A stretch of DNA of 64,000 nucleotides from Candidatus Marinacidobacterales bacterium (GCA_965224085.1 CBDCYI010000004.1:1824001-1888000); one strand, 5' to 3'; positions 39,365 through 58,817 are shown, counted from the first letter of the stretch. Numbers and translations: made by a program. The notes: a model not told the origin generated them from the sequence alone.

Positions 39365-39376
39365 GACTCGAGACGT

Positions 39377-40072
39377 CTACCGGGTCAAAACGTCGACCGT
39401 CTCCCCGTCGTCGAGTGCCGTGTGGCCCGCCACGATGACGCGCTCACCCGCCGAGACACCGCTCACGACCTCGATGGCACCGCCGCGGGTATAGCCGAGC
39501 TCGACGACACGTTTTTCGGCCACGCCGTTCGCCTCGATGAAAAGAAAGTCTTGGCCGCCTTCTTTCACGACGGCGAGCTTCGGAACGAGCACGGCCCCTT
39601 CGCGCCGATCGGTCTCGATTTCAGCACGGACGAAAGCGCCAGGACGGACAGTCGTCGAGCGATCGATGACTTCCACCGTCACTTTGACCGTGCCCGTTTT
39701 TGGGTCGACGACCGGGCTGAGGTCGCGCACGCGGGCGCGGACGCCGACGTCCTCGCTCGAGGCTCCGGCCGCGAGTGCTTCGGGGACGAGTCGGACGGGT
39801 TGTCCGGGCTCGAGCTGAAAGACGTCCTTTTCCGGGAGGAACAGCTTGACGATGAGCGTACTGAAATCGGCGAGGGTGAAAAGAGGGTCGCCCGGCTGGG
39901 TCGCTTGACCGACGACGATCTCCTTCGCCGTAACCCGTCCGCCGAAGGGCGCTTTGACGTCCGTGTAGCGGAGCTGGAGCTCCGCCGTCTCGCGCTCGGT
40001 CCGGGCGAGCTCGCGGTCGAAGACCGCTTTTTCGTAGTCGAACCTCGAGATGAGCTCCTGGTCGAAGGAGAT
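39377..40072 (-). pseudogene. RND periplasmic adaptor (membrane fusion protein), C-terminal part
   Basis: VKAPFGGRV, SPVVDPKTGTVKV, RPGAFV, VLVPKLAV, GVSAGERVIVAG. Confidence 0.88.
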
Positions 40073-40300
40073 CTGATCCCATGCCGCGCTCAGCCAATCG
40101 GCCGCGAGCGCCGCGGGAAGCGTGCCGCCGATGGCCCACGCGAAGAAACGACCGCCCCCGCTCGTCAAGAGCCCGCCTTCGACCCCGCGCGCGAGCTCGT
40201 CGATCACCTGCTCGTCCGGCAAGCTTTCGTCTTGGAGCGCGATGTCGAGCCGGTCCGTGAGCTCTTCTTGAGTCGCGGTCGTTGCGACCGAAGGCATCCT
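40073..40300 (-). pseudogene. PLP-dependent (group II) decarboxylase fragment fused in frame to the adaptor
   Basis: GGRFFAWAIGGTLPAALAADWLSAAWDQ. Confidence 0.75.
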
Positions 40301-40543
40301 CCGAAAATCCTCCAACTGAAACCGAACTGAGAAGGGTCGAGAAACACTCGAACTCCGGGACTATGTCCTCAGTAGAGGGCGTATGTGATTCAGCGCCCGG
40401 AATTTGCGTGACTGAGGAGGGTCTAGAAGGGTTTGGACGGGTTCTCGACCGTCCCCTACGAGATGTTGACAGGGCATAAGGCGCTTCGAGTATCGGTGGC
40501 GTTGAAAAAGGAGGCCAAAGTGGCGGCGGGAAGGTATCCAGGC

Positions 40544-41380
40544 TTACGGTTGCGTGGTGGAACGAGGAGAGTCAGAAGAAGTGTCTTTAGCGTGGGCGGT
40601 ATGAGATCTCCGAGCGCGGAAGGACTTGCCGTTGATTTTGAGGATGATGGCGCCCTCGACGAGTATGTCGAGAAAGGCCATGGCGAGGGGTCCGTCGGCG
40701 AGATAGTCGGCCCACTTTTCGAAGTCGACGTTGGTAACGAGGGCGGTGGAACGGTACTGATGTCGGGCAGCGATGATCTTGTAGAGGAGATGTGCGGCTT
40801 CGGGGCATTCGGAGCGTTCGATTCTGTCGAAGCCGAACTCGTCGATGATGAGCAGGTCTGGGCTTTTATATCGGCGGAGTTTTTGAGGAAGAGTTTTGTC
40901 GGCGAGCGAGGCGGTAAGATCGGCGATGAGATCGGCGGAGGTTCGGTAAAGGGGACGAAAGCCCAGGGCGCAAGCCCTGATGCCGATGGCCTGCATGATG
41001 TGAGATTTACCCACCCCGGATTGACCGACGAAAATCAAGTTAGCGCGTCGGCGAATGAAATCGGCGGAGGCGAGTTGTTCGATCTGTAATTTGTCGAAAG
41101 CCTTTGGATTGAACTTCCAGTCGAAAGTCTCGAGAGTTTTTCGTTCTTGGAATCTGACTTGGCGAATGCGTCGCTCGGTGGAGCGTTCACGGCGTTGGTC
41201 GACCTGGTGTCCGATGAGATTTTCGAGAAAAGCAAGGTGAGAGAGTGCATCGTGGTCAGCTTTTTCGAGGGCTTGGTCGAGCTGAGCTGAGCGCAAGGGG
41301 ATGTTCAAGGTGGCAAAGTGAGCAAGACAACGCTCGCGGAGCTCATCGGGGCTCTTGGATTTATTGTGGTTCGTCGTCAT
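40544..41380 (-). CDS. istB: IS21 helper ATPase IstB
   Basis: KTLETFDW, GQSGVGKSH, LLIIDEFGF, NGKSFR. Confidence 0.93.
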   Translation of the reverse strand: MTTNHNKSKSPDELRERCLAHFATLNIPLRSAQLDQALEKADHDALSHLAFLENLIGHQVDQRRERSTERRIRQVRFQERKTLETFDWKFNPKAFDKLQIEQLASADFIRRRANLIFVGQSGVGKSHIMQAIGIRACALGFRPLYRTSADLIADLTASLADKTLPQKLRRYKSPDLLIIDEFGFDRIERSECPEAAHLLYKIIAARHQYRSTALVTNVDFEKWADYLADGPLAMAFLDILVEGAIILKINGKSFRARRSHTAHAKDTSSDSPRSTTQP

Positions 41381-41862
41381 CGGTTTTAGATCCGTCAAGC
41401 AGTTGTTGGTACTCGGATGCGGGCCGCGGTGACACGGCGGGTTTTCGCAGAAGCTCGTCGAGGCTTTGTCGTGCAGTTTCACTCAAAGACTCGAAAGTGG
41501 TTTTGGGCTGAGCCTGAGCCGCGAGGATGCGCTCGATGGCAGAACGGGAAAAGGCACGGTATCGAGTGGCCCTCTCCAGTGCAGTCTTGAGGTCGTCGAA
41601 GCGATAAAAGGCGTGAAGGGCGAGGATTCGGAGAGCTTCATCTTTGCCGAATCGCCGATTGCGGAGCAGTTCGTCGAAAAAGCGTTCTCCGAGGGCACCG
41701 AACTCGGCAAAGCGTTTTCGGAGTACTTCGATGCGCTGCTTGAGCGAGTGCGGGGATCGATGGCTTTGCTCTGTGGCTTTTTCGTCCGAGACCGACCGAG
41801 CGAAGAGTTTGTGGCGCGCGATCTCCTTGATATTGGGAGCGTAGACGACGAGCTCGTTGAGG
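41361..41862 (-). pseudogene. istA: IS21 transposase IstA C-terminal fragment
   Basis: Manual translation LVVYAPNIKEIARH..ALERATRYRAFSRSAIERIL..RPASEYQQLL-stop, overlapping the istB start. Confidence 0.8.
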
Positions 41863-41961
41863 GAGTGGGTTTACTCCCGACGCTCAAGTCTCGGAGAGGA
41901 AATGCTTGTTCCTCTCCGAGGCGTCTCTATGCTTGCGGACGCCCCGCTACTTTAGCTCACG

Positions 41962-42314
41962 TCAAGTCTGGACGTAACGAAGTTTACGTCCAAGCCTATC
42001 CGGAGCTGGGCGCAAAGACTTTGATCTCTACCGATGGAGGCACAGAGCCCGTCTGGTCGACCGACGGAACGGAGCTTTTCTACCGTAACCGCGACGATGT
42101 GCTGGCCGTTCGCGTGGACTCACCGTCGCCTGGAAAACCCGAGATGTTGTTTCGAAGAGCTTTTCGCGTAGGGAGCGACGATCTCGGTGAACGGCAGTAC
42201 GATGTCTCACCAGACGGCCGCCATTTCGTGATGGTCCAACGAGGGCGCTCGAATCAATTCAACGTCGTCCTCAACTTCCTCGACGAGCTCGAAGAGAAAA
42301 TACAGGCGCGCTAG
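41962..42314 (+). pseudogene. C-terminal PD40/TolB-like propeller tail (typical of Ser/Thr kinase-propeller proteins)
   Basis: SGRNEVYV..STDGGTEPVWSTDGTELFYR..YDVSPDGRHFVMV..VVLNFLDEL. Confidence 0.8.
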
Positions 42315-42364
42315 AGGACTTCAGGGACGACGACCTGCGGCGTGTGTGCCAGGGATCTCCATCT

Positions 42365-42406
42365 TTGACATGCGATTTTGATGAAAGTAGACTATTCGCA
42401 TGTCAA
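42365..42406 (+). promoter_or_regulatory. Sigma70-type promoter and operator of the TA operon, probably leaderless
   Basis: TTGACA (42365-70)-17 bp-TAGACT (42388-93), ATG at 42400; perfect 11-bp inverted repeat TTGACATGCGA / TCGCATGTCAA. Confidence 0.8.
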
Positions 42407-42630
42407 CGATGATCCAGATTCGCAACGTTCCCGAGAAGATTCACCGACAGCTGAAGGCCAGGGCGGCACTCGCCGGGACGACGTTGTCCGAGTACATTCT
42501 GCAGGAACTCAAAAAAGACCTGACGCGACCGACACGAGAAGAGCTCCTGGAGCGCATCGCCAAGCTACCCGGCGTGAGCCTTTCGAAGTCCCCAGCGGAA
42601 ATCCTCCGGGAGGAACGAGACCGCCGTTGA
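42400..42630 (+). CDS. FitA-like ribbon-helix-helix antitoxin
   Basis: MSTMIQIRNVPEKIHRQLKARAALAGTTLSEY; overlaps the toxin start. Confidence 0.9.
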   Translation: MSTMIQIRNVPEKIHRQLKARAALAGTTLSEYILQELKKDLTRPTREELLERIAKLPGVSLSKSPAEILREERDRR

Positions 42631-43022
42631 TCGTTCTCGACGCATCGGCACTCATCGAGCTCCTGTTGAATACGGAACCCGGCCGCCGCCTCGCCACACG
42701 AATCGTCAATCCTCGTGTGATGCTCCACGCGCCACATCTCGTTGACCTCGAGGTCGCGCAAGCGTTGCGGAGGTACGTTCGCCATGGCGAGATTAGTGAC
42801 GCACGTGCACAGATCGCGCTTCAGCACCTCGCTCTTCTCGATTTGAATCGCTACGCTCACTCTGATTTCCTGCCAAGGATTTGGGCGCTCAAGGACAACG
42901 TTTCTGCCTATGACGGCGCCTACGTGAGTCTCGCCGAGGCGATCGGCGCCACTCTGGTAACCGGAGATCGCCGACTGACCAAGGCCGCAGGCACGCGAGC
43001 CGTTATCGAGTTACTCGACTAG
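42627..43022 (+). CDS. vapC: VapC PIN-domain toxin
   Basis: IVLDASALIE, APHLVDLEV, SAYDGAYVSLAE, LVTGDRRL; TTG start overlapping antitoxin TGA. Confidence 0.92.
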   Translation: MIVLDASALIELLLNTEPGRRLATRIVNPRVMLHAPHLVDLEVAQALRRYVRHGEISDARAQIALQHLALLDLNRYAHSDFLPRIWALKDNVSAYDGAYVSLAEAIGATLVTGDRRLTKAAGTRAVIELLD

Positions 43023-43065
43023 CCGTTGCGCTGAACGCCTCATTTCGATCTTGTAGCAAGGACGT

Positions 43066-43425
43066 CTATTCGATGAAGAGCTCGACCTCACCGCCTTCTT
43101 TTAGCGACGCGATCGTTTGGTCGATGCCGGCCTGAATCGCCTGCTGCTTCAAATGTTGCTCGATCCGCGGCTGAACGTCTTCGAAAGACATCAGCTGTCC
43201 TTCGATCTTCTCCGACAGCTTGATGATGTGGTAGCCGAACCGTGTCTCGATGACGGAGCTCAGCCCGCCAGGTTCGAGCGCGAAGGCGGCTTGCTCGAAG
43301 GGCGGCACGGTTTGACCCCGCGTCACGGTGAGCTCGCCGCCGTTTTGTGCCGAGCCTGGATCTTCAGAATGCTCCCGCGCGAGCACCGCGAAATCAGCTC
43401 CGGATTTTACTTCTTCCAAGACGCT
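43066..43425 (-). pseudogene. Parvulin/PpiC peptidyl-prolyl isomerase, C-terminal part
   Basis: GADFAVLAREHSEDPGSAQNGGEL..PFEQAAF..ETRFGYHIIK. Confidence 0.88.
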
Positions 43426-43641
43426 TTCGATAGCCGTGAGCACGGACAGGTAGCCGTTTCTATCCTGAAGGCCAACCGTCGGAGCCAGATTGAGCAAGAT
43501 TTTGGTCTCGAGGTATGCGTTTAGAATTCATCCGGACGGATCGCGAGAGACAAAAAGTTCGACGCGGTGCCTGTAGGTGGGCATCGAAGCCTGTTGACGA
43601 GGTTCAAGACACACAAAGAGCGTGTCCCTAACGGTTAGGCG

Positions 43642-43790
43642 TCAATGGAGGTTGAGCGTCGGGTTGGGAGGAGCTCTTTGTCGCGAGGGGTTGTTGTTCT
43701 GGTGCGCCAGAATGCGACGGATGGAGGCGGGCCCGTGACGAAAGCGACGATTTTCATCTGGGCGCCGCATCGGCAGGTCAAAGGGTCGAC
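43642..43790 (-). pseudogene. IS91-family transposase C-terminal remnant
   Basis: VDPLTCRCGAQMKIVAFVT then IRRILAH..RQRAPP-like tail. Confidence 0.65.
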
Positions 43791-43964
43791 GTTATTTCCT
43801 TATTACTCCTGTGGAAAACTCATCCACAGGATCTTTTATGGGAAGACCATACCAGGAGCTCAAGCGTCTCGTCCCTACCGAACAGTGAAGAAATGTTGGC
43901 CGCACGTTGGCTTTTGGAGAGCCTGCGCCGCTAAACGACTGAAACCAAAGGAGCGGCGTTCAGT

Positions 43965-43990
43965 TGGTGCCGGAGGGGGGATAAGAACTC
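43965..43990 (-). other. Degenerate tRNA 3' end (Leu-like), att-site remnant
   Basis: Minus strand GAGTTCTTATCCCCCCTCCGGCACCA: T-arm/acceptor 3' strand with CCA but damaged T-loop and no 5' half. Confidence 0.6.
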
Positions 43991-44279
43991 GCACACTAGC
44001 GTGCTCAGCAGCGGTCCCGTTGGACTCGAACCCGCGTTACGGCGTCCAAAACCACCCTCCGTCTCCAAATCGTCTCCAAAACTGGGGAGGACTCCAGAGG
44101 ACTCCTCCTTGATTTCGCGCGTGGACGAGTTTTGACGAGGGACAGGTGATCACCACGTGGTGAGCACCAACGTCTTTGCCAGGCAGTTTCTTGAGCTCGG
44201 AAGAGTTCGCTTGACCCTCCGATTACCCTGTCGTCGAGCCGCTGCTCCGGTTCGAGCTGCCCGCCGCCCCTTTTCGTTC

Positions 44280-44585
44280 TCAGCTCCGTCGGTCGCTCGA
44301 ACTCAAACACCGCGCGAGAGCGCTGAGTCGGTGGCCGTGCCGTGTGGACTGGGCTCTTTCAGCCGCCGAGAAAAGTTTTCGAGCCAACTCACCGTTGCCT
44401 GTCGCGAGCTGACGCCGGGCTTCTTGTCTCAGTCGGTAAGCGCGAACCGCGAGGACCATCAACGGTTCCAGGTCGGCGCCACAGCGCGAGCATTGTTTAG
44501 CGGCGCGGAAGCGAGCCTTACATACCGGGCAGCGCGGATGAGCGACGGCTCTTGGGCCCGTCATGTTTCGAGAGGGGGAGCTCAA
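44280..44585 (-). CDS. Small double-CxxC zinc-ribbon + TPR-like helix protein
   Basis: RCPVCKARF..QCSRCGADL then helical AYRLRQEARRQL..ARKLFSAAERAQ; overlaps Hsp70 stop. Confidence 0.8.
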   Translation of the reverse strand: MSSPSRNMTGPRAVAHPRCPVCKARFRAAKQCSRCGADLEPLMVLAVRAYRLRQEARRQLATGNGELARKLFSAAERAQSTRHGHRLSALARCLSSSDRRS

Positions 44586-46426
44586 CTGCCTTCGACGAAG
44601 AAAAGGAGCTCGTTCAATTCGTTGGTCGCTTGGGAAAGTGCCTCGGAGTCGCGCTCGGCCATCGCCCGCTCGATGTCTTCGTTCAGGTCGATGGCTTCTT
44701 CTTTGTCCTCGTCATGCATGCGCTCGAGGAGCTTGCGGGAGCGCTCCACCTGGCGGCGTGCCTCATCGGTGGCTCTGACCCAGGTCTCGTCGACGGACGG
44801 GTCGGCGTCTTCGCTGGGGACCGGCACGCCTGAGGGCGCAAGGCTCGACAACTCCGCTTCGGTCGACTCGCTCACCGTGAACAGGTCTCGAGTTGGGCCG
44901 TCTCCGTTCGCCCAAAATGTCTCTAGACGTTCCCGCGCCGCGTCGATCTCCTCATCACTTCTCGCCTCGAGGGCCTCTGTGATGGTGATGTGTTTTCTTT
45001 TGCCCGTCTCTTTCTCGATGGCGCTGACTTCGAGGATTCCGTCCACGTCCAACCGCATCCGACACAGCACCTCATTAGGCTCTTCGGTCTCCGTCAGCCC
45101 TTCGACGGTGAAATTTCCGACCGGGATGTTGTTCAAGGCGTCGGCGTCGTCGCCCTGATAAACGAATATATCGACCGTGGATTGGTACGGCGCGGACGTG
45201 AAGTAGCTCTCGGTGCGGGTGATGGGAAGGGACGTGTTGCGTCGAATGATCGGACGGTAGCAATGGGGGTAGGGAAATCCATCCTTTTCGCCCAGATGAG
45301 AGGGGCCGAAAGAGTAAGGGGACACGTCCACTAGAACTCGCGCGACATCTTCTCCCGCCAGTCTCGAGGCCAGAACCCCGGCGCCAAGGGCCACACACAG
45401 ATCCGGGTGCACTTCTTGTCTGGGGACGATGCCGGTTCGCTCTTCGAGGATGGTCGAGATCAAGGGAATCCGGGTGGAGCCGCCGACGAGGACGACCGCA
45501 TCCAGATCGGCCGTCGTCTTGTCCGCGTCGCTCATGGCGTTTGCGACGCTCTCGAGCGTGGACTCGACGAGGGGCCGTATCAGCTCCTCGTACTCCTCTC
45601 TCGAAACCTCCCGCTCCAAGTGGACCGGCCTGCCCTTTCGAACCACGAGCGCCTCCTCGCGAATCCTCACATAGGGCTCGAAGCTGAGCTCTTTTTTGGC
45701 TTCCTCGGCCGCGCGCCAGAGACGCGAATGGGCGACCGGCTCACTCTGGCACATGTCGATCCCATGCTCTCGCGAGAACTCCTCGTTCAAGCGATCCACG
45801 AGGAGCTCGTCGAAGTCGTCACCGCCGAGGCGGTTGTTCCCGTGAGTCGCGAGAACTTCGGTCACGTCGCCTTCCATGTGAACGATGGAGACGTCGAAGG
45901 TGCCACCACCCAGATCGTAGAGGAGGATCGTCTGGCTGTCCGAGTCACCGTAGCCATAGGCGAGGCTGGCCGCGGTGGGCTCGTTCAATAAGCGAAGGAC
46001 CTCAAGGCCGGCGAGCGCGCCGGCTTCGCGAGTGGCCTGGCGCTGCGCATCCGAGAAATAGGCGGGCACGGTAATGACCGCCCTTTTAGCAGTCTCGCCA
46101 AGCTCGCGATTCGCGTGCTCCGCGAGGGTTCGCAGAAGGATGGCCGAAACCTCCGGTGGCGTGAGCTCACGGTCTCCGAGCCGTACCTTGGCCTCCGAGC
46201 CTATCTTGCGCTTGATGCTCCGAATGGTCCTGTCGGGATAGAGAAGCTGTTGGTTCCTCGCGGCATTCCCGACGAGAAGCTCGCCCGATGGCCCGAGTCC
46301 GACGCAGGAGGGGAGTATCTTCGCGTCCCCCGTCCCGAGGACTCGAACACCGCCATCCACGAAGGCCGCCACCTCCGAGTTGGTCGTGCCCAGGTCGACT
46401 CCCACCGCCATCGCTTTGTCGTTCAA
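44582..46426 (-). CDS. Hsp70-family chaperone (specialised, not housekeeping DnaK)
   Basis: GVDLGTTNS, VITVPAYF, LNEPTAASLAYG, YDLGGGTFDVS, LVGGSTRIP; divergent linker/SBD VLVDVSPYSFG. Confidence 0.95.
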   Translation of the reverse strand: MNDKAMAVGVDLGTTNSEVAAFVDGGVRVLGTGDAKILPSCVGLGPSGELLVGNAARNQQLLYPDRTIRSIKRKIGSEAKVRLGDRELTPPEVSAILLRTLAEHANRELGETAKRAVITVPAYFSDAQRQATREAGALAGLEVLRLLNEPTAASLAYGYGDSDSQTILLYDLGGGTFDVSIVHMEGDVTEVLATHGNNRLGGDDFDELLVDRLNEEFSREHGIDMCQSEPVAHSRLWRAAEEAKKELSFEPYVRIREEALVVRKGRPVHLEREVSREEYEELIRPLVESTLESVANAMSDADKTTADLDAVVLVGGSTRIPLISTILEERTGIVPRQEVHPDLCVALGAGVLASRLAGEDVARVLVDVSPYSFGPSHLGEKDGFPYPHCYRPIIRRNTSLPITRTESYFTSAPYQSTVDIFVYQGDDADALNNIPVGNFTVEGLTETEEPNEVLCRMRLDVDGILEVSAIEKETGKRKHITITEALEARSDEEIDAARERLETFWANGDGPTRDLFTVSESTEAELSSLAPSGVPVPSEDADPSVDETWVRATDEARRQVERSRKLLERMHDEDKEEAIDLNEDIERAMAERDSEALSQATNELNELLFFVEGS

Positions 46427-46428
46427 TG

Positions 46429-47214
46429 CTAGTCATTCCTTTCAGCGTCTGGCCTTTCAGCGTTTGGCTGTCGGGCAACCTTGACTTCGGCGGGACGAAA
46501 CACGCGTCCCTTCCATTCGTATCCGGAGCGGTAAACCTCGAGCACGGCGCCTTCCGGGGACCGGAACGTCTCTTCGATGTCCACGGCGTTCATTCGATTG
46601 GCATCGAAGGTATGTCCCTCACATGGAATCTCACTCACTTCCAGACGCTCGAGGGCTTCGTCGATGCGCTCGACGCTCAAAGCAGTGCCTCTAGCGAGCG
46701 CTTTCGCTCCTTCGATCGAATCGGCGGCCGCGCGGCGCTGACGCTTCACGAGCTTCTTCCACTTGCGCCGTTTGGGGAGTCCATTCGCGGATTTCTTGGC
46801 CAGTCTAGTCTGCGCGCGCTCGGTGTACATGTGCGACGAGGCCAATCCTCGTTGCAGCCGGTCCCGCAAGTCGATCAAGATCTCGACGGTATCTTTGTCG
46901 GCGCGTGAGTCGGGATCGCGCGCTACGGTCCGGACCACGTCTTCGAGTTGTTTGAAGGTGCGCCCCTGAAGCTTGACTTCCTGAGCCAGAGTGGTCATCG
47001 CCGCCCATAGGGAGTAGAGATCGACGGGACGACTCTCGGAATCGGCTTCGATCTCAGCCAGGATCTCCTCGGGAACCCCGGCTGGAAAGGCTTCGTCCAA
47101 CAAGGTCTCGTCCAGCCAAGACTCGAACCGGCGAAGCATGCGGGCGCGGGTCGTTGTGGAATGCACCGCAGTCGATTCCCCGGCGTCTGCGGGATTCTTC
47201 GAATCGCTGGTCAT
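46429..47214 (-). CDS. grpE: GrpE-family nucleotide exchange factor with N-terminal extension
   Basis: GHTFDANRMNAV..VLEVYRSGYEWKGRVFRPAEVKVA. Confidence 0.88.
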   Translation of the reverse strand: MTSDSKNPADAGESTAVHSTTTRARMLRRFESWLDETLLDEAFPAGVPEEILAEIEADSESRPVDLYSLWAAMTTLAQEVKLQGRTFKQLEDVVRTVARDPDSRADKDTVEILIDLRDRLQRGLASSHMYTERAQTRLAKKSANGLPKRRKWKKLVKRQRRAAADSIEGAKALARGTALSVERIDEALERLEVSEIPCEGHTFDANRMNAVDIEETFRSPEGAVLEVYRSGYEWKGRVFRPAEVKVARQPNAERPDAERND

Positions 47215-47540
47215 GGCCTTTCGGGGTCTTCTCCCTGCTTGTTCGGCCCGGGCTTCGTTTGGCGGAGCGCCTCCATCCAGAGCTCGGGGCCCACGAAGTT
47301 TCGAGCCGTCTGGCCCTTGAGTAAGCCAAGAAGGGGCTCCGACGGATCCTCAGAAGTGAACAAAAGCTCCCGTTTGTGTTTCGGATCGCTCAGTGCCTCG
47401 TAGGCATCGCGCACCACCTCGAACATCGTTGGGTCACGATCGGGCGGATGCTCAGCGACCTTTCTGAGATAAGCGGCCCGGATCTCTTCGGGGCCAGCCT
47501 GAATCGAAACACCGAGGACCACATGGGGGGCTTCGGTCAC
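47211..47540 (-). CDS. Small J-domain co-chaperone (HPPD variant)
   Basis: PHVVLGV..EEIRAAYLRKVAEHPPDRDP..FEVVRDAYEALSDP; GTG start likely at 47540. Confidence 0.85.
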   Translation of the reverse strand: MTEAPHVVLGVSIQAGPEEIRAAYLRKVAEHPPDRDPTMFEVVRDAYEALSDPKHKRELLFTSEDPSEPLLGLLKGQTARNFVGPELWMEALRQTKPGPNKQGEDPERP

Positions 47541-47550
47541 GGTCGGATTC

Positions 47551-50331
47551 TCATCGTTTGGAGCGTTTCTTCGGCTTTCTTCGGCGTCTTTTCTTTCGAC
47601 GATTGGTGCCGCGAGCGGGTGGCCTCTCGTCGTCTTCAAAACGGCGTGAGGCACGTTGGAGGCGGTCGAACAGTGCTGGATCCTGCTCCGCAATCAGGTC
47701 GAGCGGAGGCAGGCTCCCGTCCTCCGTGGCGTATTTGAAAACGAGCTCGGCCATGGGTTCCACCATGGCAGGAGGAAAGTCCGGGAACTCGGTCGGGTCG
47801 ATCCCCTTCCAGGGCGCCAGGGACTCCTCGTCGTCCCAGAACGGCTCGTCGAAAATGGGCTCGTCGTCGAAGACGTCTATCGCTCTTTGATCCTGCCTGC
47901 AGGCAGGGCACAGGCAGGGCTCGGCGTCGAGCGGCTCGACGCGCCGGAAACGGGGGTAGCTGAGGGCCCGTCGCTCCGTTTCGAGCACCTCTTCTATCTC
48001 ACCGTTGCTCATGGAGTCGTCGGGCTCGACGACGTTCACCCAGGGGGCGATGCCCTGCCGGCCGAGGTGGACGGCTTCCTTCACGAGATCCATGTTCCGC
48101 TCGCGGCGGGCGAGCTCCGCGGAAGCGGTGAGGCACTGCTCGAATCGCTCGGGCTCCCACCTGGGCAGGCTCCGAGCCCGAAGGAGCAAGAATCTGGCGA
48201 TGTAGGCGTCGGGATGGATCAGGCCGAGTCCGGAGACCGCGTAGCCGAGCTTCTGATTTCCCCGGCGCAACGAAGCTTCCGCGAGCGTGCGCAGCTCCTT
48301 GGGCTCGAGCAAGGCCGCTTGTTCGGGGAGCTCCCGCAGGAGTCGCTTTTCCCAACCCGCCGGAATCTCGATTGCGAAGCCGACGTCTTCACCCAGAACG
48401 CAAGCGCGGGCCACCGCCCTGGCGAGCCGTCCCACCTCGAGGAGCGCGGGCTTCTTCCAACTCATGAGGCTCCGGCTGTCGAGCCCGCAGGCTCGCGCGA
48501 GCGCATCCATGACGATGAAAGCGGTCGGATCGTCCAGCTGGGCGATAACCTGATCGCGGTACCGTGAAGCTTCTGGATCGCCGCCAAGCGAGCTCGAGAG
48601 CGCGCGCAGCGAGGTCACGATGGCGGGCCGGTCACCGGTGCGAGTCTCCGGGAGCTCCCAAAGAGCATCGATGTCCTTGGCAGCCAGTCGAAGCTTCCGA
48701 CTCTTCAAGTGGCGGATAGCGGTGGCGATGAGGAGGCGCAGCCGCCCTCGTTTCACGTCTGGATTGAGCTTGTCTCGGAGCTCTGCCTTTTCCAGATAAC
48801 CGAGCGCCTTCTTGAGAGCGTTTCTTTTTTCGCTCGCCTCCGAGAGGTGGAGCAGAGGCGCGCTGTCCTCTGGAAGCTCCCGATGCCATGCGAAAGCGGC
48901 TTTCTCCGCGGTTTTGAAACCCGGTTGCCCTTTCGCCCAGTCGAGCCAGGCACGGAAGGTCTCCCGATACGGATCGCAACCGGCGGCGCGCTCGAAGAGG
49001 AGAGCGGGGCTGACGAAATAAGGGTCGGGACGTCCGGGCGGCGGAGCAGCCGCGCGTACCTCTTGCGGCTGGTTCACGTAGAAGTCGGCGAAGCCCGTAT
49101 AGCCCTTTGGGAAATGCGCCGCGGCTTGCTCCAGGGTCTGATCGTCCACGCGCTGTAGAAGCTCGAGCATTCTGAGATAGATGGCGGCCTCCTCGGGGCC
49201 TTCACCCTGAATCCATCCCTGCGCGATCGCGTTTCTCCGAAACTCTTCCCAAAGGCAGCCGGCCATGACCCAGTCGGCCTCCTCCTCCATCGCCCGTGCC
49301 ATCATGCGCCAAAACGCGGCGTCGTGGAGCGCCGGTCCGCCGACGGCCGCACTCACGCGGTCCGGCCGTATCTCGTTCAAGAAGCACCGCGCCCATATCC
49401 GCTGCTTCAGCTTCTCGGTGACATCCGGCCGGCTGCGATTGCACCGGCGGAGGGCTTGTCTCACCGCCGTCAGGATTCGGGCTTCGCGCCCCTGAACGAA
49501 AGCGTCGTCCAATTTGACCAGCGCCGCGCGCAACGGCGCGGTGTTCCCACTGATTCGCGAGACGAGCTCGTCGTCGTTGCCCGCCGCCGGAAGCTTTCCG
49601 GAAACGAGATCGTGCAACGTGGGCGCGAGTCGGGCGGGGACGGAAGTCGGGTCGATCGACTGCAGGAGTGTCTCGCACTGGTCGTCCTCGCGTCGATAAA
49701 AATGTGCGATGGCCCTTATGAGTAGCTTCCAATCCGCGAGCGGGCTCCGGCGTGAGAGCTCGGGAAGGGCGAGCGTACCATCCTCCACCGGTCCGCGGGT
49801 GACGGCGGCAAAGGCCTTCGACAACGCCGCGGCGGCGACTCGCAGAGAATGCTCGCTGGGAAGTACGGGACATTCGGCGAGGGCCTCGAGATCGGTGACT
49901 TCCTGCTTCACCGCGTCGTCGATGCGACGCTGGATCGAGGGTGGGATACCCGGGTCCTCGAGCGGGCGGAGAAGGGCCGCGAAGTCGCCGTGGCGCGCGG
50001 CGACGAAGGGTTGGAGCGCCTCGAGCGCGGTGCTGGCAAAGGGGTAGCGCCGGGTCGCCGAATCCATGAGGGCCTTCGCTTCCGCCCCCATTCCGGGAGC
50101 AAAATACCAAAGTCGAGCCGCGTAGGCCGCGGTAATGAGCTCTTCCGATTCCGCTGACGGGGATTGCTGGTGGAGCACCTTCGCCGTCGAGATGGCTTGC
50201 TTGTGCTGTCCCTGCTTGACGAGACGCTGGATCGCGAGAGGCGTCGGCGCCGACGGGGTCTTCCTCTGAGATCGAGCGGCAGGTTCACCGCGGCGATTCT
50301 TCTTGGCTTTCCGGGCCACTCTCAGTGCCAC
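47551..50331 (-). CDS. 926-aa helical/TPR-like hypothetical protein
   Basis: Long uninterrupted Ala/Leu/Arg-rich ORF with TPR-like stretches (ALKKALGYLEKAELRDKLNP), CLCPAC, acidic region, basic termini. Confidence 0.8.
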   Translation of the reverse strand: MALRVARKAKKNRRGEPAARSQRKTPSAPTPLAIQRLVKQGQHKQAISTAKVLHQQSPSAESEELITAAYAARLWYFAPGMGAEAKALMDSATRRYPFASTALEALQPFVAARHGDFAALLRPLEDPGIPPSIQRRIDDAVKQEVTDLEALAECPVLPSEHSLRVAAAALSKAFAAVTRGPVEDGTLALPELSRRSPLADWKLLIRAIAHFYRREDDQCETLLQSIDPTSVPARLAPTLHDLVSGKLPAAGNDDELVSRISGNTAPLRAALVKLDDAFVQGREARILTAVRQALRRCNRSRPDVTEKLKQRIWARCFLNEIRPDRVSAAVGGPALHDAAFWRMMARAMEEEADWVMAGCLWEEFRRNAIAQGWIQGEGPEEAAIYLRMLELLQRVDDQTLEQAAAHFPKGYTGFADFYVNQPQEVRAAAPPPGRPDPYFVSPALLFERAAGCDPYRETFRAWLDWAKGQPGFKTAEKAAFAWHRELPEDSAPLLHLSEASEKRNALKKALGYLEKAELRDKLNPDVKRGRLRLLIATAIRHLKSRKLRLAAKDIDALWELPETRTGDRPAIVTSLRALSSSLGGDPEASRYRDQVIAQLDDPTAFIVMDALARACGLDSRSLMSWKKPALLEVGRLARAVARACVLGEDVGFAIEIPAGWEKRLLRELPEQAALLEPKELRTLAEASLRRGNQKLGYAVSGLGLIHPDAYIARFLLLRARSLPRWEPERFEQCLTASAELARRERNMDLVKEAVHLGRQGIAPWVNVVEPDDSMSNGEIEEVLETERRALSYPRFRRVEPLDAEPCLCPACRQDQRAIDVFDDEPIFDEPFWDDEESLAPWKGIDPTEFPDFPPAMVEPMAELVFKYATEDGSLPPLDLIAEQDPALFDRLQRASRRFEDDERPPARGTNRRKKRRRRKPKKRSKR

Positions 50332-50439
50332 ATGCGGGGTTGGTTGCCCCTCACCTTCCCACGAAAACTACATCCGGAAAATGGAGCACACCTGCTCAGT
50401 TCGTCCGGATAATAGAAGATCCCCAGGAATCCGTCCAGG

Positions 50440-51547
50440 ACAAAAGTCAGCCTTCCGCGCGCACACAAAGATCTCCCTGAGCGTCACGCGCCGGGTGGCG
50501 AGTCCGGCCTGCATCGCCGGAGTCCGGATCTCGCGTCCGAACTTCAGAGCGCCGTGGGGCCTGGCGAACTTGTAGTAACAGCGGACCAGTTCCAGTTGCT
50601 CTTCGAGCTTTTCCTTCGACCGAGCGTGCGAAAGCGTTCGTCGCGCCAGATACGCCAAGCTTTGCCGGATGGTCAGATTCAGGCGCTCGATAAACGAGGT
50701 GTTCAATGTCGACGAATCTTCCGAGTTTTTGAGCGCTTCTTCGAAGCGCCACCTGGCTCCCAGCAGCTCTCTACGTTCGACCTTCACGATACGATCGTTG
50801 CTTCGGGTCTTCAGGACCTGCGCATAGAGCACGGCCGGCCCGAAAACGCGGCGGACTCCGTGACGCTCTTGTCGTAGAAATCGAATCCGTCGGTGACGAT
50901 CAGTGGAAGACCCTGGAAATCCATCCGGTCGGCGACGTCGCGCACAAGGGCGAGTGTATTCCGGTAGCTTCGTCGCCCGACGATTGTCGACGGCCAGAGA
51001 CGAGACCCAACTTCGATCGCCGCGAAAATCCACGTTATCCGGTCCTTGCTGCCGGCGAAGGAGCGAATCTCGTCGGCTTGGAACTCCTCGACGCCGAATC
51101 CACTGATTCGTGCACTGTTGAAACGGCGGCAAGCGTCCGCCGCCTTCTCGAGCCAGCGCGCGACGGTGTTCCAGGCAATCCCCTCGACCCGAGCAACCGC
51201 GGAAATACTGACACCCTCGACTCTGAGAGCGACGACCGTGTCGAAAGTAGCTCTTCGATGCTGGAGACGGTAGTAGGGCGTGCCCTTGGTCGAAGAGAAC
51301 GTCTTTGCGCAACGGACGCACCGGTATCGACGCCGTTTTCCGGATCTCGTTGTGTAGAAACCGTGGCGGACGATGTTCCCGGAACCGACTTTTCCGTGGA
51401 ATGTACATGCGGGATTGAGACATCTGCGATTCTTCAATTCGGCTTGGCCCTTGTCAGACGAAAGATCTGCGACTCTCGAAATCGGGCTAAAACTCTAGCA
51501 CGCGAGCGGCTAGGAGCAGACGGCCAACACTTGATTGCGGAAGCACC
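50440..51547 (-). mobile_element. IS1-family element, transposase frameshifted ~50865
   Basis: CLNPAC..RYRCVRC zinc finger, HTH, FQADEIRSF, IVTDGF, NTSFIERLNLTIRQ, TPAMQAGL; putative left end GGTGCTTCCGCAATCAAGTGTTG at 51547. Confidence 0.85.
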
Positions 51548-51549
51548 GG

Positions 51550-51750
51550 AAAAGGGTGCCGTCGCCTCCAGCGACAATGTTCTCGATGCGGCCGTTCGCA
51601 AGGCGCCAATCCTGCATCGGGTTGGCCCAGTATTCTGGCCCGATCCAAACGCGCTCGGCTTCATCCGTCCACCCGCTCTCAAACCCCGAATCCGTTTCCC
51701 GTGAACAGGCGGCCGCCCACAGGAGGAGCGACAAGCGAATCCATCTTGGA
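51550..51750 (-). pseudogene. N-terminal fragment of a secreted PhoD-like protein
   Basis: Lipoprotein-like leader then RVWIGPEYWANPMQDWRLANGRIE; cut at the IS end. Confidence 0.5.
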
Positions 51751-51951
51751 GGGCCGACTTGCTTCCAATAATTATTCACGCAGGCGTTCTCACGAAGCGC
51801 CGAGAGTCTATTCCGCATCGCGCCGGTTTACCAGCTGCGTTTCCGATGTGGTCGATCGGGAGTAAATTAGGGAACCGTGCCGAATGACGGCCGGTGCAAC
51901 TTCACTGATTTTAGTAGCTCTCGTTACTCACATCATGATAGGCTCACTCTC

Positions 51952-52473
51952 GTGAGCGCTCAACCGAAGCGGGATCTCCTCGCGGAGCTTTCGCTCTCGT
52001 CCGCGCGCTGGACCCGCATCTGGGGCGTACCGGAGCTCGAGCACCGCAGCTCCATCGAGTGGAGCCCGCGGATGACCCGCAGTCTTGGCGTTTGCTATCC
52101 GCGTAGAGGTAGGGTCCGTCTCGCCGCATATCTCCAGACGGCGGAGCGGCGGCTCGTCGAAGAAGTGCTATGCCACGAGATGGCGCACCTCGCCGCGCGC
52201 GAGCTACACGGAGACAGAATCCGTCCTCACGGCCGCGAGTGGAAACGCTTGATGGAAGCCGTCGGCTACGTCCCCCGAACGCGACTTGCTGTGCCGGCCG
52301 GTCTGCGGCCAACCCCCAAGCAAAGGAAACGGCGCAGCTTTGGGCTCTACATCCATCTCTGTCCGGTGTGTCAGCGCATACGCGTCACGCGCCAACCGAT
52401 AAAGCGGTGGCGCTGCTGCGCCTGCGTCCATGCCGGCCGCGACGGCGTTCTCACGCTTACTCGAAGACTATGA
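51952..52473 (+). CDS. SprT-family zinc metalloprotease
   Basis: RMTRSLG, VLCHEMAH (HExxH), PHGREWKRLM, C-terminal CPVC..CCAC. Confidence 0.9.
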   Translation: MSAQPKRDLLAELSLSSARWTRIWGVPELEHRSSIEWSPRMTRSLGVCYPRRGRVRLAAYLQTAERRLVEEVLCHEMAHLAARELHGDRIRPHGREWKRLMEAVGYVPRTRLAVPAGLRPTPKQRKRRSFGLYIHLCPVCQRIRVTRQPIKRWRCCACVHAGRDGVLTLTRRL

Positions 52474-52495: not shown

Positions 52496-53200
52496 TTAGC
52501 CCGAGAGCGCGCTCAGGCTGGACTCGTAAACGGCCGCGCAACCAAGAGCGACGGTCGCGAGACCCACGACCCACTGAAGCCCATCCCTAAATCGCGTCAG
52601 GCCCTCGGCGGAGAAACGAAAGGGAATCGCGATGACCGCGGATAGGAGCGTCATCCCGAGAATCGAGCCGAGGCCGAACAGCAGCATGTAGATCATACCG
52701 ACCGCGACGGAAGGCGTGCGCTCCAAAGTAAGGAGAATCAAAGCAGCGGAGCCTGCCATCCCGTGCACGAGGCCAATCACAAGAGCCCGAAGGCCGTTGA
52801 CCCTTACGTGAGTATGCTCGTGAGCATCATGTGTCGGCTCGCCCGCATGGGCGTGTAGATGCAGGTGGTGTGTTCCATCGCCGTGCTCGTGCTGATGAAA
52901 ATGAACCTGGTCGCGGCGCACTCGTCGGATGACGTCGAGACCGAGAATCACGAGCATGACGCCGACAGCGAGCTCGAGCCCGGCGGCAAGCCGGCTGGGC
53001 ATCACGCTGTCGACGAGAAGCACGACCGTCCCAAAAAGCGAGAGCGCGATCGTGTGGCCGACGCCCCACAACGCCCCGTGGCGGATGCACTCCGCCGGCG
53101 TTTTGGCGCCCGTCGCGAGCGTCGCGACCGCAGCGATATGGTCCGCCTCGAGCGCGTGGCGCATCCCGATGAGAAAGCCCAGAACCAGAAGTCCGACCAT
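52496..53200 (-). CDS. NiCoT/UreH-type nickel-cobalt permease
   Basis: GMRHALEADH, WGVGHT, His-rich loop, GLVHGMAGSA. Confidence 0.9.
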   Translation of the reverse strand: MVGLLVLGFLIGMRHALEADHIAAVATLATGAKTPAECIRHGALWGVGHTIALSLFGTVVLLVDSVMPSRLAAGLELAVGVMLVILGLDVIRRVRRDQVHFHQHEHGDGTHHLHLHAHAGEPTHDAHEHTHVRVNGLRALVIGLVHGMAGSAALILLTLERTPSVAVGMIYMLLFGLGSILGMTLLSAVIAIPFRFSAEGLTRFRDGLQWVVGLATVALGCAAVYESSLSALSG

Positions 53201-53209
53201 CCAAGAATT

Positions 53210-54139
53210 CTACAGCGCCCGATGGCGCTCGAAGGACTGCTGGTTCGTACCGGAAAGCAACAGGTGCGACGGAAGACGTCGCCCGAGAAAGCCTTCGATG
53301 AGACGCGCGGCTTCCATGACACGATCGATATCGATGCCCGTTTCGAGATCCATCTCGTCGCACATGTTCACGAGATCCTCGGTGGGGATATTTCCCGTGG
53401 CCGCGGGCGTCACGGGGCATCCGCCCAACCCTCCAATCGAGGAATCGTAGGTATCGATCCCCGCCTGAAGGCCCGCAAGCACGTTGGCGAAGCCGAGACC
53501 TCGCGTGTTGTGAATGTGGAGCGACAGCTCTACGTCCTCATCGAGCTCTTCCTGCAGACGCAGCATGAGACGTGTGACTTCTGTCGGATTGGCCATTCCC
53601 ACGGTATCCGCAATCGAGATCTCACGAATGCCCATGGCTACGAACGCATGCGAAAGCTCCGAGACGCGGTCCGGGGGCGTCGGCCCTTCGAAGGGGCAGG
53701 CGAAGGAGACGCCGATGGCGACTTCCACCGGGACGTCGCGCTTCGATGCGATCCCGACGATCTCCTCACAGTCGCGAACGGACTCGGCGACCGACATCCG
53801 CACATTTCGCTGGTTGAAGGTCTCGCTGGCGCAGACGACGAGGCGGAGGGCGTCGATATCTTCCTCGACCGCGAGCTCCGCCCCCCGGGTATTGGGAACC
53901 AAAACAGTGTAGCGCACGCCCGGCGCGCGTCGGATGCCCCGCATGACTTGACGCGCATCCGCCATCTGCGGCACCGCCTTGGGGCTGACGAACGACGTCG
54001 TCTCGATCTTGCGAACGCCGGAGCAAGAGATGGCGTCGATGACTTGGATTTTCAAGTCCGTGGGAATGAACGCCTGCTCCGTCTGGAAGCCGTCGCGCGG
54101 CCCCACGTCCACGATGTCGACCTTGTCCGGCAAGCTCAT
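53210..54139 (-). CDS. Hydroxymethylglutaryl-CoA lyase
   Basis: VGPRDGFQ, SFVSPKAVPQMAD, HIHNTRG, GGLGGCP, GNIPTEDL. Confidence 0.93.
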   Translation of the reverse strand: MSLPDKVDIVDVGPRDGFQTEQAFIPTDLKIQVIDAISCSGVRKIETTSFVSPKAVPQMADARQVMRGIRRAPGVRYTVLVPNTRGAELAVEEDIDALRLVVCASETFNQRNVRMSVAESVRDCEEIVGIASKRDVPVEVAIGVSFACPFEGPTPPDRVSELSHAFVAMGIREISIADTVGMANPTEVTRLMLRLQEELDEDVELSLHIHNTRGLGFANVLAGLQAGIDTYDSSIGGLGGCPVTPAATGNIPTEDLVNMCDEMDLETGIDIDRVMEAARLIEGFLGRRLPSHLLLSGTNQQSFERHRAL

Positions 54140-54258
54140 TCGTCTGGATGTTAGCACGTACCTCGACGGAATAAATTTTCCGCCGGGAAGTAGGAACTTT
54201 AGACGGTTTCGGGTGTCTAAAACGGATAGATGGACACCTCGCCGCCGGGGAGGAAATC

Positions 54259-55218
54259 ATGCATTCCATCTCTGCGCTCGTGGCGTTTTCGATTCTCACT
54301 CCGATCCCACAGGTCGAAGAGCCCATTACCCACGGAAAACTTACCGTTTACGTGGTCCGCGCCTCGCAAACGGACCCGCGCTCGTACATCACGCTCGACG
54401 AAGGCCTCGAATCCGGAGCCGTCGAGGTGCGCGAGCGGGGTAGCGGTGACGTCAATAGCCTCGAAGTGGAGAACGGCTCCGACAGACACCTATTCTTGCA
54501 TGTCGGAGACATCATTCGCGGGGGCAAGCAGGACCGCACGATTGCGACCGACGTTTTGATCCCACCGCGGTCGGCCCCCATCGCGGTCGATGCGTTTTGC
54601 GTCGAGCACGGCCGGTGGGCCGCCGATGCGCGCGCGGGCTCCGCCTTTTCCTCCAATGACGCCCTCGCGAGCGGTGCCAAGCTCAAGAGAAGCATCCAGC
54701 GCGCCCAAAGCCAGCAAGAGGTCTGGGACGCCGTCTCGGTTGCAGAAACGGTTGTCGCGGTATACGCAGCCGCTCCATCCAACCGTCTATCTTCGTCGGG
54801 CACTTATAGCGCGATCGTTGAGAACGAGCCACTGCGGGCGGAACGCGAAGACTACGTCGAAGCTGTGTTGCCTCGAGTGCTCGCCCACGAGGACGCGGTT
54901 GGCGTGGTCGTCGCCATCGATGGCGAGATTGTCGGTGCAGACCTCTATCGTTCTCACGAGCTCTTCGGGAAACTCGCCCGCAAAGTGCTCGACGCCTACG
55001 CGCAAGAGGCAATTCTCAGCGGAGACGCGCCGGCTGCAGCGCCTCCGACTATAGGCGCGGTGTCGCGATTCCTGGACGATGGAGCGAACGTGACGACCGA
55101 ATCCTTATCGACCACGATGGAACGAAGCTCGTCGGAGAATGCCGACGCCGACATATTCGAGTACCGCTTTCGCGAGGACGCGAAACCCTTGCACTCGAGC
55201 TACGTCAAAAAGAGATAG
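54259..55218 (+). CDS. Exported ARPP-1/DUF6569-like domain protein
   Basis: Signal-like N-terminus; VNSLEVEN..GDIIRGGKQDR..FCVEHGRW..QQEVW..VGVVVAIDG..ADLY. Confidence 0.75.
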   Translation: MHSISALVAFSILTPIPQVEEPITHGKLTVYVVRASQTDPRSYITLDEGLESGAVEVRERGSGDVNSLEVENGSDRHLFLHVGDIIRGGKQDRTIATDVLIPPRSAPIAVDAFCVEHGRWAADARAGSAFSSNDALASGAKLKRSIQRAQSQQEVWDAVSVAETVVAVYAAAPSNRLSSSGTYSAIVENEPLRAEREDYVEAVLPRVLAHEDAVGVVVAIDGEIVGADLYRSHELFGKLARKVLDAYAQEAILSGDAPAAAPPTIGAVSRFLDDGANVTTESLSTTMERSSSENADADIFEYRFREDAKPLHSSYVKKR

Positions 55219-58814: not shown

Positions 58815-58817
58815 GGA

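Follow-up and report, generated by a model that had tools for sequence, protein, structure and literature searches.

Background

Reviews of prokaryotic Hsp70 chaperones distinguish three types, DnaK, HscA and HscC (PMC8215388), and a 2026 review refers to the remaining DnaK derivatives as unexplored 'dark matter' (PMC13580251). Here we describe an operon of five genes that encode a 926-residue protein (A), a small J-domain protein (J), a GrpE, an Hsp70 and a small zinc-ribbon protein (Z). It lies at positions 44280-50331 of a 64-kb stretch of DNA from a Candidatus Marinacidobacterales genome (GCA_965224085.1, CBDCYI010000004.1:1824001-1888000), which we call the window. A first-pass annotation, made from the sequence alone, had suggested a mobile chaperone module with its own client or sensor, possibly a stress or anti-phage system. 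The interpretation that we favour, and to which we give about an even chance, is that the five genes form a dedicated, horizontally mobile, scaffold-tethered, HscC-like Hsp70 machine.

Judged by sequence, the operon appears nearest to HscC/DjlC among the dedicated Hsp70 systems. HscC is a specialised Hsp70 of sporadic occurrence with private J proteins, which in E. coli are DjlB and DjlC. By annotation, the E. coli hscC locus also carries Sel1-repeat (TPR-like) and DUF1266 genes. The features described as defining HscC include a deletion of DnaK residues 76-101 in lobe I, an insertion of 4-8 residues in loop L1,2, a lid shortened by a nine-residue deletion in helix B, a length of 550-580 amino acids and function without GrpE (PMC8215388, Mayer 2021). 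The same review describes HscC as having no GrpE signature, as preferring positively charged peptides and as linked to Cd2+ and UV tolerance (PMC8215388). DjlB and DjlC carry HPE in their J domains, a variant given as present in about 1% of J proteins (PMC10410713).

The operon departs from this system by its private GrpE, its giant putative scaffold and its zinc-ribbon protein, and its Hsp70 is 36% identical to E. coli HscC, which sits on a very long branch. Its J proteins are 95-120 residues long, without the long C-terminal part of DjlC, and carry PPD or PPE without the histidine in place of the usual triad. We found no functional description of this gene set in the literature searched, as the first-pass annotation had supposed; the supplements of Kaur 2020 and Bell 2024, and Barriot et al. 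2020, may list the architecture.

A conserved five-gene operon

Five co-oriented open reading frames (ORFs) without internal stops fill the region on the minus strand. Gene A (47551-50331) encodes 926 residues that AlphaFold2 models as an all-alpha, TPR-like solenoid scaffold. The frame of gene J (47211-47540) is open from 47693 and overlaps A because it stays open upstream of the probable start, an in-frame GTG at 47540. This start lies 10 nt past the stop of A, and the resulting length of 109 residues fits that of the homologs. The GrpE gene (46429-47214) encodes 261 residues with the GrpE domain (PF01025) at residues 115-247. The Hsp70 gene (44582-46426) encodes 614 residues of family PF00012 from a TTG, with an alternative ATG at 46411, and gene Z (44280-44585) encodes 101 residues, predicted to form a four-cysteine zinc ribbon followed by three TPR-like helices. 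Given the first start codons, J overlaps GrpE and Hsp70 overlaps Z by 4 nt; the gap between GrpE and Hsp70 is 2-17 nt. The frameshift-free, tightly packed arrangement reported in the first-pass annotation is thus borne out.

The GrpE and Hsp70 proteins of the window score well above the Pfam cut-offs (67.1 bits against 25.8, and 441 bits against 20.6), and J reaches about 34-35.4 bits for DnaJ, with a cut-off of 27.8. Z has a weak, sub-threshold match to Zn_ribbon_6. Protein A has no match in Pfam, NCBIfam or PADLOC.

A profile of A collected 75 loci, one per species genome; among them, L001 duplicates the DNA of L078, which belongs to G001, a genome of the same genus. The gene content of each locus was determined by tblastn with the five window proteins, and in 55 loci the contig extends 4.2 kb or more downstream of A, which is long enough for the whole operon. 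The order A-J-GrpE-Hsp70-Z is kept on one strand in 53 of these 55, across at least six phyla, with the GrpE gene within the operon in all 53. The remaining two are L054, which has all five genes in permuted order, a Hsp70-Z block followed by an A-J-GrpE block, and L067, a deletion remnant in which A is truncated, Hsp70 is partial and Z is present. As far as they extend, the other 20 contigs, which are shorter, agree with the operon order. Recurrence of five genes in the same order on this scale is far beyond chance.

ORFs next to the operon are nearly all singletons, shared among near-identical genomes only (as seen with a crude ORF caller), and we therefore take the unit to be exactly five genes. 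A conserved sixth gene and a fixed insertion site were both considered and rejected, as flanks are common to near-identical genomes only. In several loci of Acidobacteriota (L018, L020, L026, L067, L025, L043 and L075) a gene of about 888 codons, usually with a partner of about 118 codons, lies near the operon; its position and orientation vary, and we judge it incidental.

Going by their record titles, the carriers belong to Acidobacteriota, Desulfobacterales and other 'Deltaproteobacteria', Planctomycetota, Myxococcota, Hydrogenedentota, Sumerlaeota and Cloacimonadota. The titles point to metagenome-assembled genomes (MAGs) of soil, peat and sediment, and there is a cultured carrier, Edaphobacter aggregans DSM 19364. 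When 1.84 billion representatives were searched by profile, relatives of A numbered 634 at E<=1e-30, rising to 1301 at E<=1e-10 and to 2099 at E<=1e-3. The top 150 do not differ much in length, and the source databases call these proteins 'hypothetical' or at most 'TPR repeat protein'. Prevalence is low. A is present in 3 of 61 relatives, the window genome counted, and in 2 of 151 genomes from the family of the cultured carrier, and a phylum sample of 301 genomes gave one strong and two weak partial matches. One of the two weak matches is from an unpublished genome (G112), on which nothing here rests.

The hallmarks of a housekeeping locus, hrcA and a class-A DnaJ with zinc finger, are not in the operon. 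Two canonical DnaK genes are found elsewhere in the window genome (876 and 750 bits, against 431 for the operon Hsp70), as are two GrpE genes besides the operon copy, and host genomes retain canonical DnaK in addition to the operon Hsp70. It could be supposed that a duplicated housekeeping dnaK-grpE-dnaJ set has come to lie beside two unrelated genes, as the three core genes do belong to the classic KJE families. Such a chance cluster is refuted by the gene order, which is common to 53 of 55 loci from different phyla whose flanks are unrelated, and the distinct Hsp70 clade, with scores below the DnaK cut-offs, and the predicted binding of A to J, both described below, argue against it as well; we give it next to no credence. 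The locus is a self-contained module, distinct from a housekeeping dnaK locus both in its conserved order and in its Hsp70 clade.

The Hsp70, J and GrpE proteins

The Hsp70 phylogeny contained 71 rows, comprising 58 operon Hsp70s, 10 DnaK-family paralogues from five genomes and the E. coli proteins DnaK, HscA and HscC. The tree does not include L032 and L061, where the match was split, the five loci L093-L097, which are duplicates, or any match with fewer than 450 residues aligned. All 58 operon Hsp70s fall on one side of a branch of length 2.01 with an SH-aLRT support of 100, with DnaK and HscA on the opposite side. The first-pass annotation had named grouping with housekeeping DnaK as one outcome that would count against a specialised machine; the operon proteins instead form a clade of their own. 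E. coli HscC, the single HscC included, is sister to this clade with a support of 99, and its end branch measures 4.25, so that the placement is unsure and may reflect long-branch attraction. Members of the clade are 52-66% identical to the window Hsp70, and for DnaK, HscA and HscC the figure is 35-40%.

Equivalog profiles likewise place the window Hsp70 outside DnaK and HscA. It scores 466.4 bits against a cut-off of 648 for the DnaK model NF001413 and 457.8 against 822.55 for TIGR02350, and for the HscA models TIGR01991 and NF003520 it scores 365.1 against 708.55 and 368.3 against 620. The HscA-HscB system, a chaperone of Fe-S clusters, also pairs a dedicated Hsp70 with a dedicated J protein and is encoded beside its client pathway. 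In the tree, however, E. coli HscA groups with the DnaK side, and scans of the window and the flanks found no isc genes near the operon. HscA is described as not dependent on GrpE (PMC8215388), whereas the operon has a GrpE.

The operon shares its three chaperone families with the DnaK-DnaJ-GrpE system and presumably the same ATP-driven cycle. The window Hsp70 has a nucleotide-binding domain (NBD), a linker, the beta subdomain of the substrate-binding domain (SBD) and a lid. Each of the 58 operon Hsp70s retains the ATPase residues D8, K70, E171, D194, T199 and D201 (DnaK numbering), as well as R167, N170 and T173, which contact J. A normal Hsp70 cycle may be expected because these residues, the SBD and the lid are all retained. 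The operon proteins differ from DnaK in being rare and mobile, and in carrying RVLVD for the linker sequence VLLLD, Leu or Met for Q378 and Glu or Asp for R467. The last of these changes is seen in 52 of 58 proteins, and position 540, which is Asp in DnaK, is often Arg or Lys (27 of 58). These substitutions could represent a charge swap in a putative lid-latch pair.

Two indels are shared by the operon Hsp70s and E. coli HscC. The 24-residue gap that corresponds to deletion of DnaK 76-101 in lobe I of the NBD is the same in E. coli HscC and in all 10 operon Hsp70s shown in our alignment, and an 8-residue insertion in loop L1,2 of the SBD lies in the same place as a shorter one in HscC. The lobe I deletion is also described for many non-proteobacterial DnaKs (PMC8215388) and is not diagnostic alone. 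In other respects the proteins part. The segment aligned to DnaK 285-295, the GrpE signature, is full length in the operon Hsp70, and where the HscC lid is shortened the operon proteins have a variable acidic insert of 30-60 residues; their typical length is 600-650 residues (614 in the window). Their C-terminus, ELLFFVEG, is nearly invariant and differs from that of HscC. Because the operon Hsp70 has neither the shortened lid and length nor the missing GrpE signature that define HscC, we do not regard it as a member of that family.

The J family is readily recognised, with 44 of 44 members matching Pfam DnaJ (PF00226) at E<=0.01 (best 4e-12), and the domain is similar to the one at the N-terminus of DjlB and DjlC, both being off the HPD consensus. 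Among 47 J sequences, one duplicate pair included, the His position of the HPD triad holds Pro in 46 and Gly in one, the next position is Pro in all 47 and the third is Asp in 34 and Glu in 13. The position before the triad, which is Tyr in DnaJ, is His in 16, Tyr in 14, Phe in 11, Asn in five and Trp in one. The first-pass annotation had drawn attention to an 'HPPD' motif in the window protein. The motif is present, but it is not HPD with an inserted proline: since alignment with E. coli DnaJ and DjlC equates the preceding aromatic position with the Tyr ahead of HPD, it represents Tyr-to-His and His-to-Pro substitutions. After the J domain comes a tail with a conserved motif of the FVGPxPW type, in which G84 and W88 (window numbering) are invariant.

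The operon GrpE scores far below all 22 NCBIfam GrpE equivalog cut-offs, so that it is a divergent member of the GrpE family.

The likeness to HscC raises the question of whether the operon is a general booster of stress proteostasis, with A as a broad substrate-recruiting co-chaperone that helps the cell to fold or disaggregate more protein under niche stresses, for example from metals, UV, acid or drying. The lobe I deletion, the L1,2 insertion, the sister position to E. coli HscC and the DjlB/DjlC-like J domain are in keeping with such a role, as are the tolerance phenotypes linked to HscC (PMC8215388), the apparent soil, peat and sediment origin of the carriers and their ordinary flanking genes. 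A booster of this kind would not need a 926-residue scaffold, a private exchange factor and a zinc-ribbon protein in fixed order, the HscC grouping may itself be an artefact of the long HscC branch, and the flank tallies (top 25 families) show no heat-shock regulatory elements, ClpB or small Hsps. We regard this explanation as quite unlikely.

Protein A and a predicted complex with J

The first-pass annotation described A as helical, and the AlphaFold2 model agrees: it is an all-helical solenoid of 51 helices (mean predicted local distance difference test score, pLDDT, 87.9) in which residues 1-24, 819-838 and 903-926 are disordered. Both of the disordered termini are basic, and the Lys/Arg tail at the C-terminus comes after an acidic stretch. 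Conservation among homologs is highest in blocks 161-240, 481-580 and 681-760. The C-terminal 120 residues are variable, usually ending in a Lys/Arg tail, and 49 of 71 homologs have at least eight Lys or Arg among their last 30 residues.

Foldseek matched A to TPR superhelix scaffolds only, such as Ctr9 and Ski3, with 37 hits at E<=1e-3 (E 5e-6, template modelling score (TM) 0.11-0.2), and its Atlas neighbours are TPR families (0.92-0.94). A profile of A gave one match to the sequences of solved structures, at chance level (E 0.95). Pfam, NCBIfam and Foldseek found no enzymatic or known effector domain in A.

The connection between A and the chaperones is predicted to run through J. Models of A (residues 25-905) with J gave ipSAE scores, a measure of the model's own confidence, of 0.70, 0.72 and 0.70, against 0.06 for the best control; the mark of the A-J models is reached by 58 of 80 solved complexes and by 2 of 110 mismatched pairs. 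The runs have at least 72% of contacts in common, with a partner pLDDT of at least 69. In the model it is J residues 53-97, the tail with G84 and W88 and not the J domain, that contact A, at residues 146-387. The interface on A has a mean conservation of 0.68, higher than the 0.62 of the region around it, a mean equalled or exceeded by 135 of 10,000 subsets drawn at random. The J tail is thus predicted to dock on a conserved patch of A, which would couple the 926-residue protein to the chaperone machine much as the first-pass annotation had imagined.

The polybasic tails admit of another explanation, in which they anchor the machine on RNA, DNA or ribosomes. The machine would then act on nascent or nucleic-acid-bound proteins, with the eukaryotic Zuotin-Ssz-Ssb complex as its functional analogue. 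Besides the Lys/Arg-rich C-termini, the basic N-terminus of the window protein fits this idea, and the top Foldseek matches are RNA-linked scaffolds (Ctr9 of Paf1C, and Ski3), a likeness of generic fold only. On the other side, no nucleic-acid-binding domain was found and the flanks show no link to translation genes. In view of the peptide preference described for HscC (PMC8215388), the basic tails could equally be Hsp70 binding sites. We consider tethering to nucleic acid or ribosomes very improbable.

Protein Z

Z has an almost invariant motif of four cysteines (CPVC...CSRCGADL) and, in the AlphaFold2 model (pLDDT 84.2), this ribbon is followed by three helices. The first-pass annotation had read the protein as a double-CxxC, TPR-like, zinc-binding one, and the model fits that reading of a two-CxxC zinc ribbon with TPR-like helices behind it. 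In the structural comparison (VIA) the helices align nearest to TPR units of co-chaperones, with Sti1 first (Z score 10.9, root mean square deviation 0.9 over 58 residues), then Hop (10.0), Sgt2 (9.6), PP5 (9.0) and CHIP (8.9), although Z scores of about 9-10.9 are below the tool's caution level for helical repeats. A Foldseek search of Z against the PDB gave nothing at E<=1e-3. Zinc-ribbon Pfam families match at most 14 of 44 members, weakly and generically. We also considered an escort role of the Hep1/Zim17 kind. Hep1 and Zim17 are Hsp70 escort proteins with a DNL zinc finger and would serve here as an analogy only; the idea was dropped, zf-DNL matching 0 of 44 members.

Eukaryotic TPR co-chaperones such as Hop/Sti1, CHIP, Sgt2 and PP5 clamp the C-terminal EEVD motif of their chaperone partner. 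The operon resembles these systems in having a near-invariant C-terminal Hsp70 peptide together with TPR-like partners. It differs in that there is no sequence similarity and the motif is hydrophobic, and we use the comparison as an analogy.

Horizontal transfer and genomic context

The operon moves horizontally. G001, from the same genus, has a DnaK 96% identical to that of the window genome, whereas its operon Hsp70 is 66% and its A 44% identical; for G012, from another genus, the values are 82% for DnaK, 70% for the operon Hsp70 and 53% for A. Because an operon Hsp70 of 66% identity accompanies a DnaK of 96%, the copies are not vertical orthologues.

In the window genome the operon lies in a variable insertion of about 11 kb (40300-51550), which holds an IS21 IstB gene, an ORF of no recognised family, a PIN-domain ORF, repeat fragments, the operon and an insertion sequence (IS) element. 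The DNA on either side (window positions up to 40291 and from 51549, 51956 or 52496) is conserved at 79-93% identity in G001-G004, and the interior is not syntenic. Together with the identities above, this agrees with the view of the first-pass annotation that the module is mobile.

That annotation also placed an IS1 element on one side of the operon and tRNA-end remnants on the other. The insertion is bounded on the gene-A side by a multi-copy, IS-type repeat (50454-51548), with 35 mostly fragmentary matches of 73-88% identity in its own genome and many copies of about 82% identity in same-genus genomes; it was noted in G002-G004 and in G012. It looks like an old, decaying IS family. Its assignment to IS1 is weak: the repeat has weak IS1 and rve_3 Pfam matches, and the IS1 transposase match of ORF 50368-51423 (E 8.6e-4) is under the cut-off. 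The tRNA remnants were not confirmed, ARAGORN having found no tRNA in the window and Rfam nothing at E<=1 in 42900-52000. On the side away from A, 43000-44290 contains fragments repeated elsewhere in the genome.

G003 has other mobile DNA at the syntenic site. There (L105, G003:C1:1645000-1658000) two inverted copies of a gene for a 441-residue reverse transcriptase, each with a 77-residue ORF, flank a PD40 beta-propeller protein, a TPR protein and ORFs of no recognised family, an arrangement like that of a composite element. Searches with A in plasmid, phage and IMG/VR viral collections, which hold few relatives of the carrier phyla, gave no match.

A sigma-70-like promoter match on the minus strand (50409-50437), about 78 nt upstream of A, is the sole promoter-like site on that strand in 43800-50800. 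The promoter and terminator scan was not above shuffled expectation (one promoter site against 0.7 expected), so that only its position is suggestive.

Beyond the insertion, AcrB-family and HlyD-family genes occupy 36115-40315 on the minus strand. Sequences on the two sides of junction 38753/38754 match G001 and G003 at sites about 2.9 and 4.5 kb apart, respectively, and there seems to have been a deletion inside the efflux-pump region of the window genome. On the gene-A side, 52859-55218 on the plus strand holds a 431-residue ORF without Pfam family and then an ARPP-1 domain protein (2.2e-60). A transglutaminase/DUF58/MoxR cluster follows on the minus strand (55967-59918), in a region syntenic in same-genus genomes.

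Is the operon a defence system?

The first-pass annotation had offered as one possibility an anti-phage system in which the Hsp70 cycle gates an effector. On this account the operon defends against phages or other mobile elements, and A is a fast-evolving sensor or effector, with the private Hsp70 cycle controlling when it assembles or is released. The polybasic tail of A would act on nucleic acid or membrane, or the machine would unfold or sequester phage proteins. Several observations are in keeping with it: the rare and patchy distribution, horizontal transfer, the place of the operon beside a PIN gene within the IS-bounded variable insertion of the window genome, and the faster divergence of A (35-46% identity) than of Hsp70 (52-66%).

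There are also published precedents for Hsp70-like parts in predicted conflict systems. The GAP1-N2 GTPase systems are described as including Hsp70, GrpE and DnaJ fusions, and resemble the operon in combining Hsp70, GrpE, J and TPR-type partners in an accessory operon (Kaur et al. 2020, PMC7159879). They are defined by GTPase and FNIII-repeat proteins, however, and occur mainly in Actinobacteria and Firmicutes (PMC7159879), and Pfam and NCBIfam detect no GTPase or P-loop family in the five proteins. In type III CoCoNuT systems, likewise, the protein CnuD is described as joining Hsp70-like NBD and SBD to HEAT-like repeats, again at a mobile accessory locus (Bell et al. 2024, PMC11090510). Its ATPase motifs are degenerate and it is linked with GTPases of the McrBC type and with HEPN RNases (PMC11090510), whereas the operon Hsp70 has intact ATPase residues, is accompanied by J and GrpE, and no McrB, McrC or HEPN domain was found. 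DnaK-like fusions to EACC1-protease modules have also been described (PMC12642450), and these too are unlike the operon in the parts that define them.

The searches themselves yielded no positive evidence for defence. PADLOC-DB 2.0 (2023 library) has no family matching any of the five proteins at E<=0.01, nor did Pfam, NCBIfam or Foldseek reveal an effector domain of any kind, such as a nuclease, protease, TIR, SIR2 or pore. In 65 non-redundant loci, 176 ORFs lie no more than two genes from the operon, and 150 of these were scanned. Their Pfam families are mainly metabolic and transport families, and PADLOC families (AbiEi/AbiEii, a TnpB/Cas12f-like protein, PDC candidates and a few others) are matched by one ORF each; having no background rate, the scan fails to show defence enrichment and is weak evidence against a defence role. 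The elements that occupy the same site in G003 carry no recognisable defence genes. We conclude that defence is not the best-supported reading; it is unlikely, with some real chance of being right.

Some neighbouring genes may be noted in this connection. The PIN-domain ORF of the insertion (42378-43022, plus strand) lies 1.3 kb from the operon, with no cognate antitoxin recognised, and PIN is the commonest Pfam family in the flanking ORFs elsewhere (4 of 150); MacB_PCD/FtsX permease families account for 3 of 150. On the plus strand at 34576-36100 an AAA_23/SMC-like ATPase (Pfam 9.7e-21) has weak PADLOC matches to LmuB (1.3e-10), mad3 and PtuA, in a putative long ORF (34576-37410) that runs antisense into the AcrB gene. 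The ORF upstream of it (32323-34035, plus strand) has weak HerA/mad8 matches (2e-9). The two, 8-12 kb from the operon beyond the efflux-pump genes, may be a defence pair.

A proposed mechanism and its meaning

For the scaffold-tethered machine that we favour, we propose the following mechanism. A would be a TPR-like solenoid of about 750 residues, to whose N-terminal third (about 146-387) J would be anchored by its tail. The tethered J domain would stay free and recruit the private Hsp70 to A in its ATP state. Hsp70 would then run its cycle of binding and release, and the private GrpE would reset it. Z would act on the Hsp70 side, because Hsp70 and Z stay adjacent in the permuted locus L054, and might clamp the C-terminal ELLFFVEG as TPR co-chaperones clamp EEVD. 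The substrate of the cycle would be either A itself, by way of its disordered acidic and basic C-terminal region and its basic tails, or a cargo lying in the groove of the solenoid. The polybasic tails would be candidate binding sites of the Hsp70 because HscC is described as preferring positively charged peptides (PMC8215388). The outcome would be remodelling, assembly or disassembly of an A complex.

Several points weigh against this interpretation. All of the evidence is computational, from sequence and predicted structures. The TPR label of A rests on TM values of 0.11-0.2, and none of 13 members matches any Pfam family, TPR included. No fused or longer forms of A or of Z were found, so that there is no Rosetta-stone link, in itself weak evidence. 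The score of the A-J complex is the confidence of the model in its own prediction, and its calibration is only rough where custom alignments are used. The J domain is without the HPD histidine, which is essential for ATPase stimulation in canonical systems, and J may tether without stimulating Hsp70. The link between Z and Hsp70 is drawn by analogy, and no client emerged from the analysis. As to purpose, we infer an accessory, niche-specific chaperone-adaptor function, which we rate above classical immunity.

A bolder interpretation is that the operon represents a fourth, as yet undescribed bacterial Hsp70 type beside DnaK, HscA and HscC, built on eukaryote-like logic and spread as a mobile cassette that serves as a conditional switch. 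The near-invariant C-terminus would be a docking peptide, Z and A would be TPR-type co-chaperones, the J protein without histidine would be permanently tethered and the exchange factor would be private. Such a cassette could, for example, sense stress or infection, with the polybasic scaffold assembling or being released under the control of the ATP-driven cycle. We think it unlikely that this is so.

The operon is a concrete and tractable example of Hsp70 'dark matter', with 634 A-family representatives, a presence in at least six phyla and a predicted interface between the J tail and the scaffold, and the existence of a cultured carrier makes experiments feasible. It offers a natural J variant without the supposedly essential histidine, together with an Hsp70 that keeps the contact residues, and could show whether HPD is dispensable in a co-evolved pair. 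It also has its own GrpE, although its lineage is related to HscC, which is independent of GrpE. Study of the operon could show how Hsp70 specificity is hard-wired by scaffolding, and whether TPR-clamp logic arose in bacteria. Should the operon prove to be a switch in defence or stress, those fields would gain a mechanism driven by a chaperone.

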